Source of the DNA: an uncultured Gammaproteobacteria bacterium
GTDB lineage: Bacteria > Patescibacteriota > Microgenomatia > Levybacterales > GWA1-39-11
Direction: 5' to 3'
Assembly (NCBI GenBank): GCA_964537315.1
Contig: CAZIAP010000005.1
Coordinates: forward strand, 18,669 to 82,668
Length of the DNA stretch: 64,000 nt
How positions within the stretch are numbered: position 1 is the stretch's first letter; the number at the start of each line of letters is the position of its first letter. Under the pieces are notes generated by a model. The model saw only the letters and a program-made list of their open reading frames with translations, was not told where the DNA came from and ran no database searches. Made by a program: the position numbers and the translations under genes. This document shows positions 41,115-64,000 of the stretch, piece after piece.

Positions 41115-41975
41115 ATGAACGTAACAACATTAATTGGAACAAAACTAGATCAGAAGCAAACCTTTCTTGAGGATGGTACACGTGTACCAGTTTCTCTTAT
41201 TTCAATCCGCGAAAATGTAATTACACAGATTAAAAACGTTGAAACTGATGGCTATATGTCACTACAGCTAGGATACGGTTCAACAAAAAAGGCAAAAAAT
41301 TCAGTAAACGGAATGGCAAAAAAAGCGGGGTTAAAAGAAACACCCCGTTTTTTACGAGAAACTCGTGTAGAAGACGTATCTGATGCTACAGTCGGTAACT
41401 CTCTCAAAGTTGAAGAAGTATTTGAAGCTGGAGATATTGTAAATGTTGCTGGAACTTCAAAAGGTAAAGGATACGCTGGTGTAGTAAAACGACATGGATT
41501 TCACGGTGGACCAAAAACTCACGGACAGTCAGACAGACATCGTGCACCAGGATCAATCGGACAATCCGCAACACCGGGGCGCGTATATAAAGGTAAAAGA
41601 ATGGCTGGACGTATGGGAAATGAACGTGTTACAGTCCGGAATCTTATGGTTTTAGATATCGTAGATGGTGTTTTATATGTTAAAGGACTTGTTCCAGGGC
41701 CAAAAGGGACATTAATTGAAGTCAAAAAAGTAGGACATGATAATAAATTTACTCCACTATTCAAAATTGTTGAGGAGGTAGAGGCAACAGACGCTAAAAC
41801 TACGGAAGATACGCCAGCTGTAGAAGAGACAGTAGTAGTTGATGAAGTAGTAGAGGAAACTCCAAAGACAGAGACAGTTGAAGAATCTGCTCCTGAAGAA
41901 GATGCTAAATCTGAAAATAAGGATGAAGTTGTAACTCCGATTGAAGAAGAATTAAAGAAGGAGGAGAAAGAGTAA
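41115..41975 (+). CDS. rplC: 50S ribosomal protein L3 with an ~80-aa acidic C-terminal extension
   Basis: N-terminus and core match L3 (LEDGTRVPVSLI...). Extension is rich in E/V/T. Confidence 0.9.
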   Translation: MNVTTLIGTKLDQKQTFLEDGTRVPVSLISIRENVITQIKNVETDGYMSLQLGYGSTKKAKNSVNGMAKKAGLKETPRFLRETRVEDVSDATVGNSLKVEEVFEAGDIVNVAGTSKGKGYAGVVKRHGFHGGPKTHGQSDRHRAPGSIGQSATPGRVYKGKRMAGRMGNERVTVRNLMVLDIVDGVLYVKGLVPGPKGTLIEVKKVGHDNKFTPLFKIVEEVEATDAKTTEDTPAVEETVVVDEVVEETPKTETVEESAPEEDAKSENKDEVVTPIEEELKKEEKE

Positions 41976-42085
41976 ATTAATCTAATTTCTAATTGCTCTA
42001 ATTGACCTAAGTATATTTGGTCATTAGTAAATTAGAATTTATTTAGAAATTAGAATAATTAGGTTAATTAGAAATTTCAAATATT
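41976..42085. repeat. Palindromic AT-rich intergenic repeat, TTAGAAATTAG / CTAATTTCTAA family
   Basis: Outer arms ctaatttctaattg...ttagaaattag. Nested hairpin ctaattgacc-(11 nt)-ggtcattag. Related copies at 46342, 47214, 48403, 57624 and 26227. Confidence 0.6.
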
Positions 42086-45992: not shown

Positions 45993-46341
45993 AAAAATAT
46001 TAACAGGAACAGTAGTTTCGGATAAGATGACCAATACCGTTGTAGTTGAGGTTGTGCGTTACGTTGTGCATCCACTATATAAAAAGAGGATTAAGTTAAC
46101 AAAAAAATATAGTGCGGACACTAATGGAGTACCAAGCGCGGTAGGTGATTTTGTAAAAATTGAGGAGACTGTACCGATAAGTAAGACAAAACATTTTAAG
46201 GTTATTGAAAAGATCGTTGAGATTACACCTGAAGGAGAAAAAACAGCAAAGGTGAGTACGAAAGATACAAAAAACTCAGCTGAAAAAGAAGAAAAAAAGC
46301 CAGCACGAAAAGTCAGAGCAAAGAAAGGAGAATCTAAGTAA
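45985..46341 (+). CDS. rpsQ: 30S ribosomal protein S17 with K/E-rich C-terminal extension
   Basis: ILTGTVVSDKMTNTVVVEVVRYVVHPLYKKRI. About 35-aa tail. Confidence 0.85.
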   Translation: MSKKILTGTVVSDKMTNTVVVEVVRYVVHPLYKKRIKLTKKYSADTNGVPSAVGDFVKIEETVPISKTKHFKVIEKIVEITPEGEKTAKVSTKDTKNSAEKEEKKPARKVRAKKGESK

Positions 46342-46408
46342 AATAGCTAATATCTAACTTCTAATGCCAAATTAGGAATTAGTAATTAGGACTTAGAAAT
46401 TTATAACA
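46342..46408. repeat. Intergenic repeat copy (CTAATNTCTAATGNCAAATTAGGAATTAGTAATTAGGACTTAGAAATTT), about 85% identical to the copy at 57624
   Basis: Direct comparison of the rpsQ-rplN and rplM-rpsI spacers. Confidence 0.6.
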
Positions 46409-47213: not shown

Positions 47214-47251
47214 TTTGATAATGTCTAATTTATAATGACAAATTAGTAATT
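47214..47251. repeat. Short copy of the CTAATTT(C/A)TAATGACAAATTAG intergenic repeat
   Basis: gtctaatttataatgacaaattagtaatttt upstream of rplE. Confidence 0.45.
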
Positions 47252-47809
47252 TTGAATATGAGTAGTTATAAAAAAACATATAAAGATGAAATAGTGCCGA
47301 AGCTACAGAAGCGGATGAATATAAAAAATCCGATGGCTGTACCGAGGCTTCAAAAGATCGTAGTTAACACCAGCAATCGTGAGTTTTTGCAGGATAAAAA
47401 GAATATTGAAAAATATGCTGATGAGCTAGTAACAATCACAGGGCAAAAACCAAAGGTTGTAAAAGCAAAAATATCTGTTGCAACATTTAAATTGCGTGAA
47501 GGTGACGATATTGGGTTGGTTGTGACATTACGCGGTGACCGTATGTATGATTTTTTTGAAAAACTTGTTAAAATAGTCCTTCCGCGCGTGAAAGATTTTA
47601 GCGGAGTAAGTAGAGAATCATTTGACGGTCATGGTAATATGACAATCGGGTTTTCTGAACAGACGGTTTTTCCTGAGATTGACCCTGGTAGAGTTGATCG
47701 AATTAGAAGCTTGCAAATGGTACTTGTGACTAGTGCAAGTAACGATGAACAAGGGTTAGCTTTATTAGAGGAAATGGGAATGCCGTTTAAAAAGATAGTA
47801 AAGGAGTAA
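47252..47809 (+). CDS. rplE: 50S ribosomal protein L5
   Basis: Conserved L5 core (...[16 protein letters not shown]...[22 protein letters not shown]). Confidence 0.9.
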
Positions 47810-48402: not shown

Positions 48403-48518
48403 GGAAAAGAAGAAATTAACCTAATTTCTAATTGACCTAATTAACCAAAAGTTAGATCAATTGAAAATTGGGATTTGTTTAGAAATTAGTAATTAGAATA
48501 ATTAGAAATTTATAAAAT
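48403..48518. repeat. Palindromic AT-rich intergenic repeat (same family as 41976..42085)
   Basis: cctaatttctaattgacctaatt...tttagaaattagtaattagaataattagaaattt. The left arm is nearly identical to the rplC-rplD copy. Confidence 0.6.
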
Positions 48519-57191: not shown

Positions 57192-57623
57192 ATGAAAACA
57201 ACTACACCAACAAAAGAAAGTCAGATCGAGCGCAGTTGGCACGTTATTGATCTAAAAGATCAAACACTCGGTCGTGCAGCTACAAAAATAGCAGAACTGC
57301 TAATGGGAAAAAATAAAACATATTTTGTTCGCAATTTAGATTGCGGAGATCATGTAGTTGTTACAAATGCGAAAGACTTTATCGTGACTGGTAATAAAGA
57401 AAACGCAAAACTGTATACAAGATACTCAGGGTTTCCAGGTGGTTTAAAAAAAGAAACTTTAGGAAGACTAAGAGACCGTAAACCAGAGGAAGCTATAAGA
57501 CATGCTGTTTCAGGCATGTTGCCAAAGAATAGGCTGCGTGATAAAATGCTCAAACGTTTACATGTATATGTAGATGAAAATCATCCGTACGAAGATAAAG
57601 TTAAAAAGGAGGAAGCTAAGTAA
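57192..57623 (+). CDS. rplM: 50S ribosomal protein L13
   Basis: ERSWHVIDLKDQTLGRAATKIAELLMGKNK...DHVVVTNA. Confidence 0.9.
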   Translation: MKTTTPTKESQIERSWHVIDLKDQTLGRAATKIAELLMGKNKTYFVRNLDCGDHVVVTNAKDFIVTGNKENAKLYTRYSGFPGGLKKETLGRLRDRKPEEAIRHAVSGMLPKNRLRDKMLKRLHVYVDENHPYEDKVKKEEAK

Positions 57624-57691
57624 AATAACTACTAACTAATTTCTAATGACAAATTAGGAATTAAGAATTAGGACTTAGAAATTTTAAATAT
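57624..57691. repeat. Intergenic repeat copy (CTAATTTCTAATGACAAATTAGGAATTAAGAATTAGGACTTAGAAATTT)
   Basis: About 85% identical to 46342..46408. Contains the 7-bp inverted repeat CTAATTT...AAATTAG. Confidence 0.6.
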
Positions 57692-60386: not shown

Positions 60387-60459
60387 AATTTCTAGCCGGG
60401 ATATCGTATAGTGGCAGTATGTACGCATGGGGTGCGTGCGGCCTCGGTTCGATTCCGAG
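60387..60459 (+). tRNA. tRNA-Pro (anticodon GGG)
   Basis: Manual fold: 7-bp acceptor CGGGATA/TATCCCG; T-arm CTCGG-TTCGATT-CCGAG; anticodon arm TACGC-ATGGGGT-GCGTG with U33 and GGG at positions 34-36; D-loop with GG. Confidence 0.65.
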
Positions 60460-60493
60460 TATCCCGACATTACACAAACTTAGTGTCAGTGAA

Positions 60494-61708
60494 TTACCTG
60501 AACTCTATATCTAGAAAGCTTCTTACTTTTGAAAAGATCTGGGTGATTCCTTTTCTTTTGCGTCTCTCGTAAACGGCTACGTTTTTTTCATATATTGATT
60601 CAATTTTGGCTATAGCACGGTCTATAGAAAACTCTGTAGCTTTCAACCGTGAGTTTTCGCCCATATTTTTTCTCAACTCACCATCGTTCAAAAGCTGTGT
60701 GACAGCGCTTGCAAAAGACTTAATATTTGAGCGGACTAAAAGGCCTTCACTTTTATTTTTGATCAGCTCATTAAATGGAGGTATGTTAAGTGTTACTACC
60801 GGCAATCCTGCTGCCATTGCCTCAAGAATTACTTTTCCTAACGTCTCAGTTTTTGACGCAAAAACAAATAGATCTGCGCTATGAAAAATAGAAGGTATTT
60901 TTTTATAATCAACTTCACCAAGAAAGTGAGTAGATTTATTGATCCCAAGTTGTTTTGATAAATTTATTAAATGTTGTTTTTGTGTGCCATTACCAACCAG
61001 GACTAAAGTAGTTTCAGGATTTGACTTATGTATAGTAGCGAAAGAGTGAAGCAACGTATCTACCGATTTCTCCTTTCCCAATCTGCCTACATACAATAAA
61101 ATTTTATTGCCAGAAGGTATTTTCAACTTTCTACGTAAAAAATCGCTATTCCCGGATTTATACTTAGAGAGATCAAGACCATGATGAATAACGGTAATTG
61201 GTTTTGTTACTCCATAACTCTTAAGCTCTTTTCTTGATATATTACTCGGAGAAATAATCTCACTACAAGAGTTTGAGAAAAGTTGTGTAATCTTTTCAAC
61301 TATTTTAGGGTGTATAAGTTTTCCAGCAGGCAAGTAGTGAGTGTAACGATTCCAGAATGTATGATGAGAGAGGATAAAAGGAATATTTTTCCTTTTAGCT
61401 ATTGTCCACCCAAGCATGGTAATTGGACCGTCTCCATGCCCATGAATAATATCAAAGTCCAGCTTCAATAACTGACGAAATGCTCTTTCAGGGAGGTAGA
61501 TAGCCAAACGCATACCCACCTGTTTTTTATAGTTGATCGATGAAAGCCTAATAACAGTGTGTTTTTTATCTTTATATCCAGGATATTTAGGAGCTATAAT
61601 TGTTACTTTATGACCTCGTGCTGCCAACGCGTCAGCGTATTCTGCAACAGAAGTTGCAACACCATTTTTCTGCGGCAGATACCCATCGGCAAAAAATCCT
61701 ACTTTCAT
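60494..61708 (-). CDS. Glycosyltransferase family 4 (GT-B, group 1)
   Basis: N-terminus KNGVATSVAEYADALAARGHKVTIIAP and C-terminal E-x7-E-like region (VFASKTETLGKVILEAMAAGLPVV). Confidence 0.8.
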   Translation of the reverse strand: MKVGFFADGYLPQKNGVATSVAEYADALAARGHKVTIIAPKYPGYKDKKHTVIRLSSINYKKQVGMRLAIYLPERAFRQLLKLDFDIIHGHGDGPITMLGWTIAKRKNIPFILSHHTFWNRYTHYLPAGKLIHPKIVEKITQLFSNSCSEIISPSNISRKELKSYGVTKPITVIHHGLDLSKYKSGNSDFLRRKLKIPSGNKILLYVGRLGKEKSVDTLLHSFATIHKSNPETTLVLVGNGTQKQHLINLSKQLGINKSTHFLGEVDYKKIPSIFHSADLFVFASKTETLGKVILEAMAAGLPVVTLNIPPFNELIKNKSEGLLVRSNIKSFASAVTQLLNDGELRKNMGENSRLKATEFSIDRAIAKIESIYEKNVAVYERRKRKGITQIFSKVRSFLDIEFR

Positions 61709-61762: not shown

Positions 61763-62494
61763 CTATCTGATTACTTGTTGTTTAACCGGTGGATTTTTTT
61801 GTAATAAGTTTATAAAAATATAACCAAGAACATACTCAAACAACGTCTTTATTATCCCGTTTTTCCATCTTCTTGCAGAAGTTTGCACTTTTAAGTCAGA
61901 AACATACTTAACTATTCCTAATTTCTTCAGTCTTTTTCCGAGGTCCACATCACTGCTCATTATCATATTTATATTAATCCCACCTGCCTTTTTATATGAA
62001 TCACTTCTGAATGCCATATTGAAACCTGAAAAATTAGGAATACCTATGAAAAAAGATAATCTAAGAAAAAATGAATATAAAAGCTGCATGATATAACTAA
62101 GAAATGTATTGTCAAAATCAACTAACGCAGACCCGGTTATCCCGACAACTTTCTTATCATTAAAACACTGTGCTACTGTTTTTAACCATTCTCTATCTAC
62201 TATTGAGTCTGCGTCTGTGCAAGCAATAATGTCACCTTTTGCTGAGTCACAACCTTTTTTCAGTGCATATGTATTACCTTGTGTGGGAGCATTCACAACT
62301 TTAGCACCGTAGGATTTTGCTATCTTAACTGTATCATCGGTTGAGTTGTTATCAGACACAATTACTTCATAATTGTTATCAGGATAATCTTGCTCTTTTA
62401 GAGACTCTAAACAATTAACGATATATTTTTCTTCATTAAAAGCAGGAATAATGACCGATATGTATGGTAAGTTATTGCTAGTTAAATGTTTCAT
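61763..62494 (-). CDS. Glycosyltransferase family 2 (Dpm1-like polyprenyl-phosphate glycosyltransferase)
   Basis: Start adjusted to MKHLTS. ISVIIPAFNEE...SDNNSTDDT...TDADS (DxD) motifs. Confidence 0.75.
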   Translation of the reverse strand: MKHLTSNNLPYISVIIPAFNEEKYIVNCLESLKEQDYPDNNYEVIVSDNNSTDDTVKIAKSYGAKVVNAPTQGNTYALKKGCDSAKGDIIACTDADSIVDREWLKTVAQCFNDKKVVGITGSALVDFDNTFLSYIMQLLYSFFLRLSFFIGIPNFSGFNMAFRSDSYKKAGGININMIMSSDVDLGKRLKKLGIVKYVSDLKVQTSARRWKNGIIKTLFEYVLGYIFINLLQKNPPVKQQVIR

Positions 62495-62531
62495 AAGTAT
62501 TCTATAGTATACTACGAACACAGCATAAGTT

Positions 62532-62599
62532 ATGGAACTTCGTTTAGGTGCACATACTTCAATTATCGGCGGATACACTTCCGCGTTGCAGAGCATTCA
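62532..62599 (+). pseudogene. Duplicated 5' fragment of nfo (first ~22 codons) fused to unrelated sequence
   Basis: MELRLGAHTSIIGGYTSALQSIH is encoded by a 55-bp segment 54/55 identical to the true nfo start at 63355..63409. The downstream ORF sequence is not Nfo-like. Confidence 0.45.
62545..62599 (+). repeat. Direct repeat copy A (55 bp) of the nfo 5' end
   Basis: aggtgcacatacttcaattatcggcggatacacTtccgcgttgcagagcattcat. Confidence 0.85.
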
Positions 62600-62717
62600 T
62601 TCAGATGAACCAGTAGGTAGGACAAGCAAAATATTCAATCGAGGTAACATCAAAGATACATTTAAAGGATTTTTTAATCGTCCTGACGCCACAGTAAGAG
62701 TGGGAGAACCTCGATAT

Positions 62718-63218
62718 TTAGAAAAAATTGATCCAGAAAATTTTGCAAGATTTCAAGAGATTTTGGCAAAAGATGCTAGTCAACGAACACAAGAAGAAGC
62801 AGATTTTCGAAAGTGTTATAGCTGTCTGAACAACGATTACAGCAGCGACTCCGAACATAATCGTATGATATCCCTGAGAGGGAAGGAAGAATGATCTTCC
62901 TGTTCTTTCTGGAAAGTTTTGGATATAACCTTCGAGTCCAAAGACTACAACCAGCCCGATTGCTAGTACAAGTATGTGCCACCATGTTGCCTCATACCAT
63001 TTCCCTTGTCTTTCATAGTTTTGCAACACAACTGCTGCGAAACCTCCAAAGATAGGAAGAAAAATATTATCACCAAACTTGAATGATCTAAATTTGGTGG
63101 TATAGTCTGCACTCTCCATGGTAAAACGAATCACCATCGTGATGTTGAAGGATACGAAGGCGAGAAAAAATCCAAATCCGAATTTCATGCTCCAGAGTGT
63201 CTCCAAGATGTTAAACAT
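62718..63218 (-). CDS. Small polytopic membrane protein (possibly GtrA/flippase-like partner of the GT2 gene)
   Basis: Several hydrophobic helices, directly upstream (same strand) of the GT2 gene. C-terminal end uncertain because it overlaps the nfo remnant. Confidence 0.5.
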   Translation of the reverse strand: MFNILETLWSMKFGFGFFLAFVSFNITMVIRFTMESADYTTKFRSFKFGDNIFLPIFGGFAAVVLQNYERQGKWYEATWWHILVLAIGLVVVFGLEGYIQNFPERTGRSFFLPSQGYHTIMFGVAAVIVVQTAITLSKICFFLCSLTSIFCQNLLKSCKIFWINFF

Positions 63219-63346
63219 CTTAGTAACCTTTCTATTATTACCGAGTTATAAACGAACGAAGCAATTATATCAATAAATAAGCCTATAGTCAAAGAGAGTG
63301 TTTCAGAGAGCCACATCTTTTGTGGCTTGTACGGTATAATTACAAG

Positions 63347-64000
63347 ATGAGAATAGGTGCACATACTTCAATTATCGGCGGATACACCTCCGCGTTGCAG
63401 AGCATTCATGATAAAGGAGGAAACTGTATGCAGATATTTTCTTCTTCTCCCCGTATCTGGAAACGTGCTATTGTTACTGATACACAAATTAAAGAGTTCA
63501 AAGAGACGAAGAAAAAACTGGATATTGATCCGGTCTACTTTCATGCCTCGTATCTTATTAATCTTGCAAATCCTGATAGAGGAGGATATGCTTCAGTATC
63601 TGCACTTACAGAAGAGCTTACACTAGCTCACAGAATGGATATTAGAGGAAGTATTATTCATCTTGGATCACTGGCAAACGGAACATATAAACAACTAATT
63701 ACAAACATCGAAAAAATATTAGATTCAACACCGGATGACGTACAATTTATTGCAGAAAATGCTGGAACAAGAAAAATTGGAACAAATCTAGACGAGCTTG
63801 GAAATATACTTCGAGACGTGTCTAGCAAGAGAATAAAAATATGTCTTGATACCTGCCACTTACATGCTGCAGGATATGATTTGAGTACAGAAAAAAGTTT
63901 TGAACTGTTTTTTGCAGAGTTTGATAAAAAAATTGGTCTTGAAAAGCTTGAAGTGATTCATGTCAACGATAGTCGTGATTCTTTCGGTACAAATAGAGAT
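63347..64000 (+). CDS. nfo: Endonuclease IV (AP endonuclease family 2), 5' partial, runs off the window
   Basis: Hand translation from ATG 63347 gives MRIGAHTSIIGG...MQIFSSSPRIW...YFHASYLINLA...IIHLGS...ICLDTCHLHAAGYD...IHVNDS with no stop to position 64000. The ORF track's 63357..63626 is another frame. Confidence 0.85.
   Translation, partial: MRIGAHTSIIGGYTSALQSIHDKGGNCMQIFSSSPRIWKRAIVTDTQIKEFKETKKKLDIDPVYFHASYLINLANPDRGGYASVSALTEELTLAHRMDIRGSIIHLGSLANGTYKQLITNIEKILDSTPDDVQFIAENAGTRKIGTNLDELGNILRDVSSKRIKICLDTCHLHAAGYDLSTEKSFELFFAEFDKKIGLEKLEVIHVNDSRDSFGTNRD
63355..63409 (+). repeat. Direct repeat copy B (55 bp) inside the genuine nfo start
   Basis: aggtgcacatacttcaattatcggcggatacacCtccgcgttgcagagcattcat. 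One mismatch versus copy A. Confidence 0.85.

Follow-up and report, generated by a model that had tools for sequence, protein, structure and literature searches.

How the start of a gene came to be present twice, with other coding sequence in between, is the question raised by one end of the window analysed here (the whole stretch of DNA, 64,000 nucleotides long, from an uncultured member of the Patescibacteria). The gene is nfo, for endonuclease IV, and its two copies of 56 nt, R1 and R2, agree at 55 of 56 positions and are spaced 809 bp from start to start; their sole mismatch (ACT vs ACC) is synonymous at Nfo Thr14. A search of the window for the 56-mer with up to three mismatches returned exactly these two sites (0 expected, from 100 shuffles), and the pair is the only long near-exact repeat across the 64 kb. 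The initial annotation had described copies of 55 bp (62545-62599 and 63355-63409, 54/55 identical) around an 810-bp insert, which it read as the footprint of an inserting element carrying a replacement nfo end, with illegitimate duplication as the alternative. Realignment upheld the repeat and its high identity and shifted the second copy by one base. The features of the locus are collected in Table 1.

Table 1. Features of the window between the tRNA-Pro gene and nfo
Feature	Position	Strand	Basis
tRNA-Pro(GGG), between recA and GT4 in relatives too	60397..60468	+	conserved synteny
GT4 glycosyltransferase	60494..61708	-	76% identical to L051; conserved synteny
GT2 glycosyltransferase	61763..62494	-	Pfam Glycos_transf_2, E=8e-34
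GT2 upstream leader	62495..62544		local match to L051
Chimeric 120-codon ORF	62532..62894	+	ORF list
R1, ectopic upstream copy of nfo codons 3-21	62545..62600	+	repeat alignment
X, in-frame relic of atX residues ~187-257	62601..62810 (210 bp)	+	HMMER, BLASTP, tblastn, DNA alignment
M', small membrane protein cut to its conserved residues 1-136	62811..63218	-	homology ends at ...VQTAITL
Promoter region of the divergent genes M and nfo	63219..63346		promoter motifs
nfo (endonuclease IV), first 218 codons, passes the window end	63347..64000	+	Pfam AP_endonuc_2, E=8.9e-27
R2, native copy within intact nfo	63354..63409	+	repeat alignment; M and promoter context upstream conserved

The nfo locus and its relatives

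The downstream copy runs, as the initial annotation held, into a convincing Nfo frame, with the AP_endonuc_2 TIM-barrel domain of endonuclease IV, an orthologous gene context and, from the ATG at 63347, the N-terminus MRIGAH of its relatives. We retrieved 48 related nfo loci; the window's Nfo is 71% identical to that of locus L003 and 67% to that of L051, and in both the downstream order endoIII-rny-HU-miaA is kept. A TATAAT box (63335-63340) stands 6 nt ahead of the nfo ATG, and the nfo mRNA would apparently be leaderless. On the minus strand, the membrane gene M has a predicted TG-extended promoter (TTGACT-17-TATAAT, 63292-63264), and the same one is found in L059.

The minus-strand membrane ORF (62718..63218), GT2 and GT4 are all present as first described. 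M has five predicted helices (from a structure model of low confidence, pLDDT 44.7, of which the secondary structure alone was used) and its full length in relatives is 171 aa; Pfam searches with M and with the chimeric ORF gave just sub-threshold noise (Jiraiya, PYRIN). The window's copy is without the native last ~35 residues, which form the fifth helix, and without the GC hairpin downstream, its ORF being extended to 62718 through antisense X by an unrelated tail of 30 aa. This 3' truncation had been overlooked in the first reading of the locus. GT2 likely starts at the ATG at 62494, which matches the start position in relatives; a longer ORF of 277 aa begins at 62596 and extends into R1.

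Relatives present two types of locus. In the first (B-type: L001, L002, L003 and L059) the order is GT2, GC hairpin, full-length M, promoter and nfo, with M pointing towards GT2 and the promoter towards nfo, and there is neither repeat nor X; the upstream context of R2 (promoter and M) is kept in all four. The hairpin, likely a terminator, folds stably and fell below the scanner's terminator criterion. In the second (A-type: L051-L057) GT2 is followed by glf, atX and nfo, and the synteny rpoA...recX-recA-tRNA-Pro-GT4-GT2 is common with the window. M and atX occur together in none of the loci retrieved. Since M and its divergent promoter, which make up most of the bracketed 809 bp, occupy the same position between GT2 and nfo in four relatives without the repeat, this comparison identifies them as resident DNA and not cargo. 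The initial annotation had proposed a search for related loci in which the repeat-bounded segment is missing as a unit; the repeat-free relatives still have M and its promoter. It had also noted a tRNA-Pro on the other side of the glycosyltransferase cluster, which is indeed present. This tRNA gene is no island border: tRNA-Pro(GGG)-GT4-GT2 adjoins recA in L051 and L054 as conserved synteny, not as a variable island. Rfam detected tRNA and nothing else over 60-64 kb.

Homology of the window to L002 is limited to 62336-62476, the GT2 5' end (70.2% over 141 bp), and 62812-63464, M with its promoter (72.8% at the nucleotide level over 653 bp). The GT2-hairpin junctions of L001 and L002 resemble each other, which suggests a single origin of the B-type junction. 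The N-terminus of the window's GT2 is nearest that of L002 (74% vs 52%). The order in which the forms of the locus branched is therefore ambiguous.

A relic of atX between the repeats

Three novel joints interrupt the sequence between GT2 and M: J1 at 62544/62545, J2 at 62600/62601 and J3 at ~62810/62811. Upstream of J1, 62495-62520 is conserved promoter-proximal sequence of GT2, with 62503-62520 as a convincing match to L051 (14/17 in a local match at equal distance from the GT2 start, a score reached by 37 of 2000 shuffles). The adjoining 62521-62544, with the ATG at 62532, may possibly be a remnant of the glf 5' leader, a weak suggestion, as its alignment to the glf leader alone is not significant.

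Between J2 and J3, X is an in-frame relic of atX, a rare gene for a protein of 290-301 aa (P0005, P0007 and P0008); in L051-L057 this gene immediately precedes nfo and shares its strand. X matches P0005 with E=2.4e-9 by HMMER among 1.84 billion proteins and E=6e-21 by BLASTP. It is 45-48% identical to atX at the protein level (48% to P0007 by tblastn), the atX orthologues being 52% identical to one another, and its position adjoining GT2 and nfo agrees with the similarity. Its frame is the only stop-free one of six (by chance, 70 codons would lack a stop with a probability of 0.007). The match surfaced solely in the exhaustive HMMER search: a word-indexed protein search with the chimeric ORF returned the query alone, blastn and tblastx found no homologue of X within the window, and viral, genome and metagenome contigs gave no match to it. 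A second HMMER match of X, the PKD-repeat protein P0006, was dismissed as spurious. We also considered whether R1 itself could be native atX; extending the BLASTP alignment to residues 155-171 of P0005 requires a 12-aa gap, and with a hand score of about +9 we take this extension as chance. The window holds neither glf nor a second atX; for both genes, the nearest sequence is just ~65% identical in DNA.

The atX protein could possibly be a PlsC-like acyltransferase. An HX4D motif is seen (SPHLRDFD, TSHNTDCD, TSHLSDLD), and the matches to PlsC are weak: a 5kym profile at E=0.017, sub-threshold NCBIfam matches, for P0008 alone, and, for a structure model of low confidence (pLDDT 47.5), 5kym as the top Foldseek match (E=0.045). 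No Pfam family matched P0005.

The chimeric ORF consists of the leader ATG, nfo codons 3-23, atX residues 187-257 and 27 codons antisense to M. The initial annotation rightly saw here a pseudo-ORF holding the upstream nfo copy; the sequence fused to that copy, taken as unrelated, is the atX relic. Among 5.8 billion proteins the ORF has no homologue other than itself and it forms a singleton cluster. We judge it a by-product of the scar and not a gene.

Origin of the mosaic

We consider it probable that 62495-62810 is a mosaic scar of ~320 bp, left by recent loss of glf and atX through illegitimate recombination or template switching. The ancestral locus would have been a composite in which GT2 (minus strand) was followed by glf and atX (plus strand), with atX running into a hairpin from one side and M (minus strand) from the other, and then by the promoter and nfo (plus strand). 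One deletion would have taken the hairpin with the 3' ends of atX and M that converge on it, giving J3; another, of glf and atX residues 1-186, would have been sealed by a 56-nt patch from the nfo start ~0.8-1 kb away, giving J1 and J2. The patch could derive from template switching or from an ectopic single strand that was integrated in an SPDIR-like way, and the route as a whole would belong to illegitimate, replication-associated recombination. The product would be what is present now: GT2 leader, nfo codons 3-21, atX 187-257, M cut at ~136, promoter and intact nfo. The same product would come from a short tandem duplication reaching from residue 187 of atX to codon 23 of nfo, with two later deletions. 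Read across J2, nfo codon 23 precedes atX residue 187, the reverse of the atX-nfo order of relatives; the window has no second copy of any whole duplicated unit, just 56 nt being doubled and X being single-copy. The repeat, the atX relic, the shortened M, the two types of locus in relatives and J1 in independent assemblies are observed; the composite ancestor and the order and number of events are what we infer from this product. The atX and M alignments share no more than 3 nt (AAG) at J3, and reading them as microhomology would need the pre-event sequence. From L051 and L054 the loss would amount to ~1.16 kb of glf and ~0.56 kb of atX (residues 1-186), at least 1.7 kb in all, so that the replaced stretch is no short microindel and far exceeds the SPDIR ones reported. 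Against the reading stand this size, the absence of a composite locus with atX and M from the sampled genomes, the absence of J2 and J3 from independent assemblies, the weakness of the glf-leader match and the ambiguous branching order. The break is, by sequence comparison, recent, as X is about as close to the atX orthologues as these are to each other, its frame is stop-free and the repeat is 55/56 identical. Illegitimate duplication, the alternative named in the initial annotation, lies in the direction to which this evidence points, while the atX relic and the truncation of M had been missed there.

A lineage of the glf-atX-nfo type could instead have taken up M-promoter-nfo DNA from a relative by homology-facilitated illegitimate recombination, with the homologous anchor in nfo, the illegitimate joint in atX and a 5' piece of nfo duplicated, glf and atX 1-186 being deleted later. 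Horizontal replacement of this kind, which we regard as unlikely, would explain why a cut M faces a cut atX, the expected illegitimate end-joint of incoming DNA, and why a composite locus with atX and M is not among the sampled genomes; moreover, L002 of the M type (SRR7082984), L052 and L053 of the atX type (SRR7082976/66) and the window strain (SRR7082968/76) all come from one run series. However, nfo copies that agree at 55 of 56 positions would require near-identical donor and recipient strains, placing the nfo segment ahead of that from atX would take extra events, and M and its promoter diverge from L002 about as much as the GT2 5' end does, with nothing to suggest that a sampled donor passed them on recently.

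The window stems from a metagenome-assembled genome and both locus types occur in the same samples, so the R1-X-M' arrangement might be a chimeric contig over co-occurring strains or species and exist in no cell. We find this improbable. J1 is spanned by two Logan contigs (L060 and L061) from independent runs (SRR7082968 and SRR7082976), both with the exact GT4 protein and matching the window at 100% identity as far as 62574. They end there, inside R1, and J2 and J3 were not found in independent assemblies: the Logan/ENA gene index holds neither M' (166 and 156 aa) nor the chimeric ORF (120 and 114 aa), the M' cluster is, like that of the ORF, a singleton, and an exact look-up of GT2 (243 aa) gave no record. 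Yet a stop at 62574 is the expected k=31 unitig break on the 34-nt exact repeat. The three joints also lie at non-homologous positions with an overlap of at most a few nucleotides, whereas de Bruijn mis-joins occur at shared k-mers, and X is just 45-48% identical in protein to atX in the species found alongside, so these did not supply it.

That the scar has since been exapted, either as a new functional protein of 120 aa or through read-through from M' into GT2 that would regulate nfo as antisense RNA, seems to us very unlikely. One frame is open over all three joints; the two in-frame fusions have a chance of ~1/9, which is not significant, although selection may have played a part. The predicted M promoter is strong and no hairpin or terminator is left between M' and GT2; a likely side-effect, on our main reading too, is that transcription from this promoter now continues into GT2-GT4, and such an RNA would be complementary at 55 of 56 positions to nfo codons 3-21, just past the start codon. 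If true, genes for cell-envelope glycosylation would by accident have become coupled to one for DNA repair through antisense pairing in trans. Against exaptation, the chimeric ORF is a singleton without homologues, it ends in 27 codons antisense to M, and the arrangement is found in no relative; we infer a scar without function.

The inserting element first proposed, a site-specific integration into the nfo 5' end that brought the membrane gene between attL and attR, does have an att-like 56-nt direct repeat around 809 bp with an opposite-strand gene in its favour, but it hardly deserves credence: the ORFs of 56-64 kb (rpoA, rplQ, rplM, rpsI, recX, TrpR-like, recA, GT4, GT2, M, nfo) include no integrase or transposase, as the initial annotation had itself observed, M with its promoter sits at the equivalent site in four repeat-free relatives, M has lost its 3' end and the supposed attL adjoins debris of atX, the resident gene upstream, the native context belongs to the downstream copy and the ectopic one is upstream, the opposite of what the model needs, tRNA-Pro, GT4 and GT2 are conserved synteny, and X has no relatives in viral contigs.

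Wider meaning and known systems

The scar is ordinary in kind and reveals no new system. It offers a natural example of gene shedding in a compact genome of the Patescibacteria (candidate phyla radiation), at a locus that now has three states, glf-atX, M or, in the window, the debris of both, and it draws attention to two very rare families, atX and M, beside the GT2/GT4 glycosyltransferase genes. Duplicated gene ends can stem from illegitimate or template-switch repair, which calls for caution in scans for att-like repeats.

Integrative islands or prophages with att sites in tRNA or protein genes, which restore the end of the gene they enter, likewise leave a gene-end direct repeat around intervening DNA; this locus, in contrast, lacks an integrase, its bracketed DNA is resident in relatives, the ectopic copy is upstream and what the repeats enclose is truncated relics. 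The homology-facilitated illegitimate recombination of natural transformation, reportedly described by de Vries and Wackernagel in 2002, resembles this locus in having one side in a conserved gene (nfo), an illegitimate joint within unrelated genes on the other and a mosaic of two variants. It differs in that no donor was found, the divergence of M equals that of its flanks and the nfo piece needs extra events.

In a known class of bacterial mutation (bioRxiv 10.1101/2023.11.22.568220), ectopic patches 3 to ~100 bp long are inserted at microhomologies, and R1, 56 nt copied from a same-genome site 809 bp away, fits within that limit. As in SPDIR, an ectopic copy from the same genome would replace resident sequence at two illegitimate joints, without a recombinase. 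Unlike SPDIR microindels, which replace tens of base pairs, kilobases would have been replaced here, and the product alone is seen, in an uncultured patescibacterial host, the event itself being unobserved. Complex rearrangements of the FoSTeS/MMBIR type have been described mainly in eukaryotes and in E. coli amplification systems, and are said, after Hastings and colleagues in 2009, to arise by template switching during replication. The locus shares with them its permuted segments, closely spaced novel joints, a deletion that comes with a small local duplication, and little or no homology at the junctions.

The second nfo start and the sequence beside it

The start of nfo occurs twice in the window as a 56-nt repeat whose copies lie 809 bp apart, start to start, and agree at 55 of 56 positions, the one difference (ACT versus ACC, Thr14 of Nfo) being synonymous; the duplication reported in the initial annotation is borne out, with its coordinates and length slightly corrected. 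This pair is the sole long near-exact repeat of the 64-kb window, and a search allowing three mismatches returned just these two sites, where shuffled sequences gave an expectation of 0. The downstream copy sits inside a genuine endonuclease IV gene (Pfam AP_endonuc_2, E=9e-27), the product of which begins MRIGAH... as in relatives. The upstream copy sits inside a chimeric ORF, as had been noted, and between the two lies a minus-strand ORF with a hydrophobic product (M). GT2, GT4 and tRNA-Pro(GGG) were found where they had been placed, and the local genes and best Nfo matches point to Patescibacteria, near Levyibacteria and Roizmanbacteria. In our view the feature is likely to be a scar of recent gene loss, in which the nfo start has been copied to an ectopic site and a former upstream gene survives as a relic.

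The sequence fused to the upstream copy had been called unrelated, a description that did not hold. These 210 bp (X) are open only in the plus frame of the chimeric ORF (2-8 stops in the other five frames; chance of 70 stop-free codons, 0.007). They are unmatched elsewhere in the window and in three contig collections, and their translation matches residues 187-257 of P0005, a protein of 290 aa (45% identity; E=2.4e-9 by exhaustive HMMER, E=6e-21 by BLASTP), and the corresponding part of P0007 (48% identity). Both belong to atX, a family of which 5.8 billion proteins yield three known members; these share a conserved HX4D motif as well as AAHNP, and their genes always adjoin GT2 or GT4 glycosyltransferase genes. 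P0005 has no Pfam match; weak, convergent matches to PlsC (5kym) only hint at a PlsC-type acyltransferase, and these Patescibacteria may have in atX an acyltransferase of their own for glycolipids or lipids.

Elsewhere in the window, the ribosomal-protein gene region contains AT-rich intergenic repeats (one pair of 93 nt at 82% identity, another of 44 nt at 84%) with a common core, CTAATTTCTAATGnCAAATTAGGAATTAG, that includes a small palindrome; they could be elements of a terminator-like or REP-like kind.

Coordinates of the scar, its neighbours and the corresponding genes in relatives
Feature	Contig	Position	Remark
GT2 start	window	62494
-10 box region of GT2	window	62495-62515	minus strand
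Leader, 50 bp	window	62495-62544	left of J1 (62544/62545)
Chimeric ORF	window	62532-62894
nfo codons 3-21, ectopic copy	window	62545-62600	between J1 and J2 (62600/62601)
X, atX residues 187-257	window	62601-62810	between J2 and J3 (~62810/62811)
M ORF	window	62718-63218	minus strand
M residues 136 down to 1 (M')	window	62811-63218	minus strand; right of J3
Promoter region, then intact nfo	window		right of M'
-10 box region of nfo, with start codon	window	63335-63349
nfo ATG	window	63347
Downstream repeat copy	window	63354-63409
AT-rich repeats	window	41967-42010, 46310-46402, 47225-47257, 48406-48449
AT-rich repeat	window	57592-57684	overlaps rplM ORF end and spacer before rpsI
M	L001	221-736	ENA
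M, two ORFs	L002	285-620, 617-757	Logan, SRR7082984
M	L003	51-566	minus strand; NCBI Levyibacteriota MAG
M	L059	10001-10516	JGI, 23.6 kb
atX	L051	10001-10906
atX	L054	4588-5460
atX	L058	10001-10810
atX-type locus	L052, L053		SRR7082976, SRR7082966
Window strain	L060		SRR7082968
Window strain	L061		SRR7082976

Two locus types among relatives

In contigs L051-L053 the gene order is rpoA-rplQ-rplM-rpsI-...-recX-TrpR-like-recA-tRNA-Pro-GT4-GT2, and the other strand continues with glf, atX and nfo, atX ending 3 bp before nfo; L054-L057 have the same order and an extra GT4. Since their RecA and GT4 are 94% and 76% identical to those of the window, these atX-type contigs are true syntenic relatives, and because atX adjoins nfo in them, X is, on this synteny, the relic of that upstream gene. 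Neither glf nor a further atX is found within the window.

The four M-type contigs (L001, L002, L003, L059) share another layout, in which minus-strand GT2 is followed by a GC hairpin that is stable by folding, a full-length M (171 aa) and a divergent promoter leading into nfo; a second nfo start or extra scar sequence is absent from all four. The alignment of the window with L002 covers 62336-62476 (GT2 5' end) and 62812-63464 (M, promoter and nfo start), with nothing between. Judged by this layout and alignment, M and its promoter are old residents beside nfo, so that the downstream nfo-start copy is native and the upstream one ectopic. The earlier reading of the duplication as the footprint of an inserting element is refuted by this sequence comparison, as M-type relatives hold M and its promoter at the same site with a single nfo start; illegitimate duplication, then a fallback, points in the right direction.

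Window M tracks its homologues through ...VQTAITL (residue 136) and diverges beyond, its ORF continuing through 30 unrelated codons; the native last ~35 residues, a fifth predicted helix in a low-confidence structure model, are missing together with the GC hairpin. M has three database relatives only. The family (~171 aa, five predicted helices, four or five sequences known, always between GT2 and nfo) has no family assignment, and its motifs FRSFKFGDNIFLP and WYE..WWH are strongly conserved. In L002, M is broken by a frameshift into ORFs of 111 and 46 aa, through either sequencing or assembly error in this 1-kb contig or independent decay. In the window and in relatives (L001, L002, L051), TATAAT-like -10 boxes lie only 5-8 nt before the nfo and GT2 start codons, which suggests leaderless or very short-leader mRNAs.

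Support for the assembled arrangement

Two Logan contigs of the window strain, reached through an exact GT4 protein match, show 100% identity with the window along 4880 bp (L060) and 2134 bp (L061), and both stop at 62574, 30 nt inside the upstream copy. Over its first 34 nt the repeat is exact in both contexts, which forces a k=31 unitig to break at precisely this position; J1 thus has independent assemblies behind it, and the samples SRR7082968 and SRR7082976 contain both contexts. This support holds for J1 but not for J2 or J3. The Logan/ENA gene index has neither M' nor the chimeric ORF as an exact product, and the clusters of both are singletons; it does have the adjoining GT4-GT2 contigs of this strain, and a unitig of ~835 bp over 62549-63383 would be expected. 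Possible reasons for the absence are low coverage, polymorphism across the scar and index gaps. Mis-assembly of the region is possible but unlikely: L061 and the atX-type L052 share one run, a caveat for MAG purity, but X is just 45-48% identical to atX of the co-occurring species and was thus not borrowed from there, and three consecutive joints without shared k-mers are atypical of de Bruijn mis-joins.

Proposed formation and possible consequences of the scar

X resembles the atX orthologues as closely (45-48% identity) as they resemble one another (52%) and retains its frame, and a single base separates the repeat copies. Both points speak for an atX that was whole until a short time ago and for a rearrangement that is young when set against the 30-40% protein divergence of the sampled relatives. 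Relatives have atX before nfo; in the window the nfo piece comes first, and an order reversed in this way takes three novel joints or more; at J3 the shared sequence is at most ~3 nt (AAG). The first half of the leader matches GT2-proximal sequence of L051 at 14/17 positions (37/2000 shuffles as high), and the second half, with ATG 62532, may, on weak grounds, be the old glf leader.

The simplest ancestor would be a composite locus, with glf-atX beside GT2 converging across a hairpin on M, itself beside nfo. J3 would stem from a single deletion that took the hairpin with the 3' ends of both genes converging on it, atX and M; where glf and atX residues 1-186 were lost, the gap would have been closed by 56 nt copied from the nfo start close by (J1, J2). 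The same end-state could be reached if the stretch between atX residue 187 and nfo codon 23 had been tandemly duplicated and two deletions had come later, or by homology-facilitated illegitimate recombination between locus variants that occur together, for which the presence of the window strain, M-type and atX-type relatives in SRR70829xx runs offers the opportunity.

The deletion of glf and most of atX probably stopped where it did on its left side because loss of the GT2 promoter would have been selected against; every relative has a -10-like box just a few nt ahead of the GT2 ATG. No terminator-like element is left between M' and GT2, so the M promoter, which is strong and conserved, may now read into GT2-GT4; only as such possible read-through does the earlier view of the membrane gene as head of a GT2-GT4 operon stand.

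We regard the scar as a fresh case of a known event type; it warns against taking att-site-like signals at face value and captures one moment in the turnover of this locus in a reduced genome. Templating from the nfo start would suit replication template switching, or a single strand of ectopic origin being integrated at microhomologies. The latter is described in Acinetobacter as SPDIR, whose patches of 3 to ~100 bp (bioRxiv 10.1101/2023.11.22.568220) are comparable to the 56-nt patch, although the stretch deleted here is far larger than the reported microindels.
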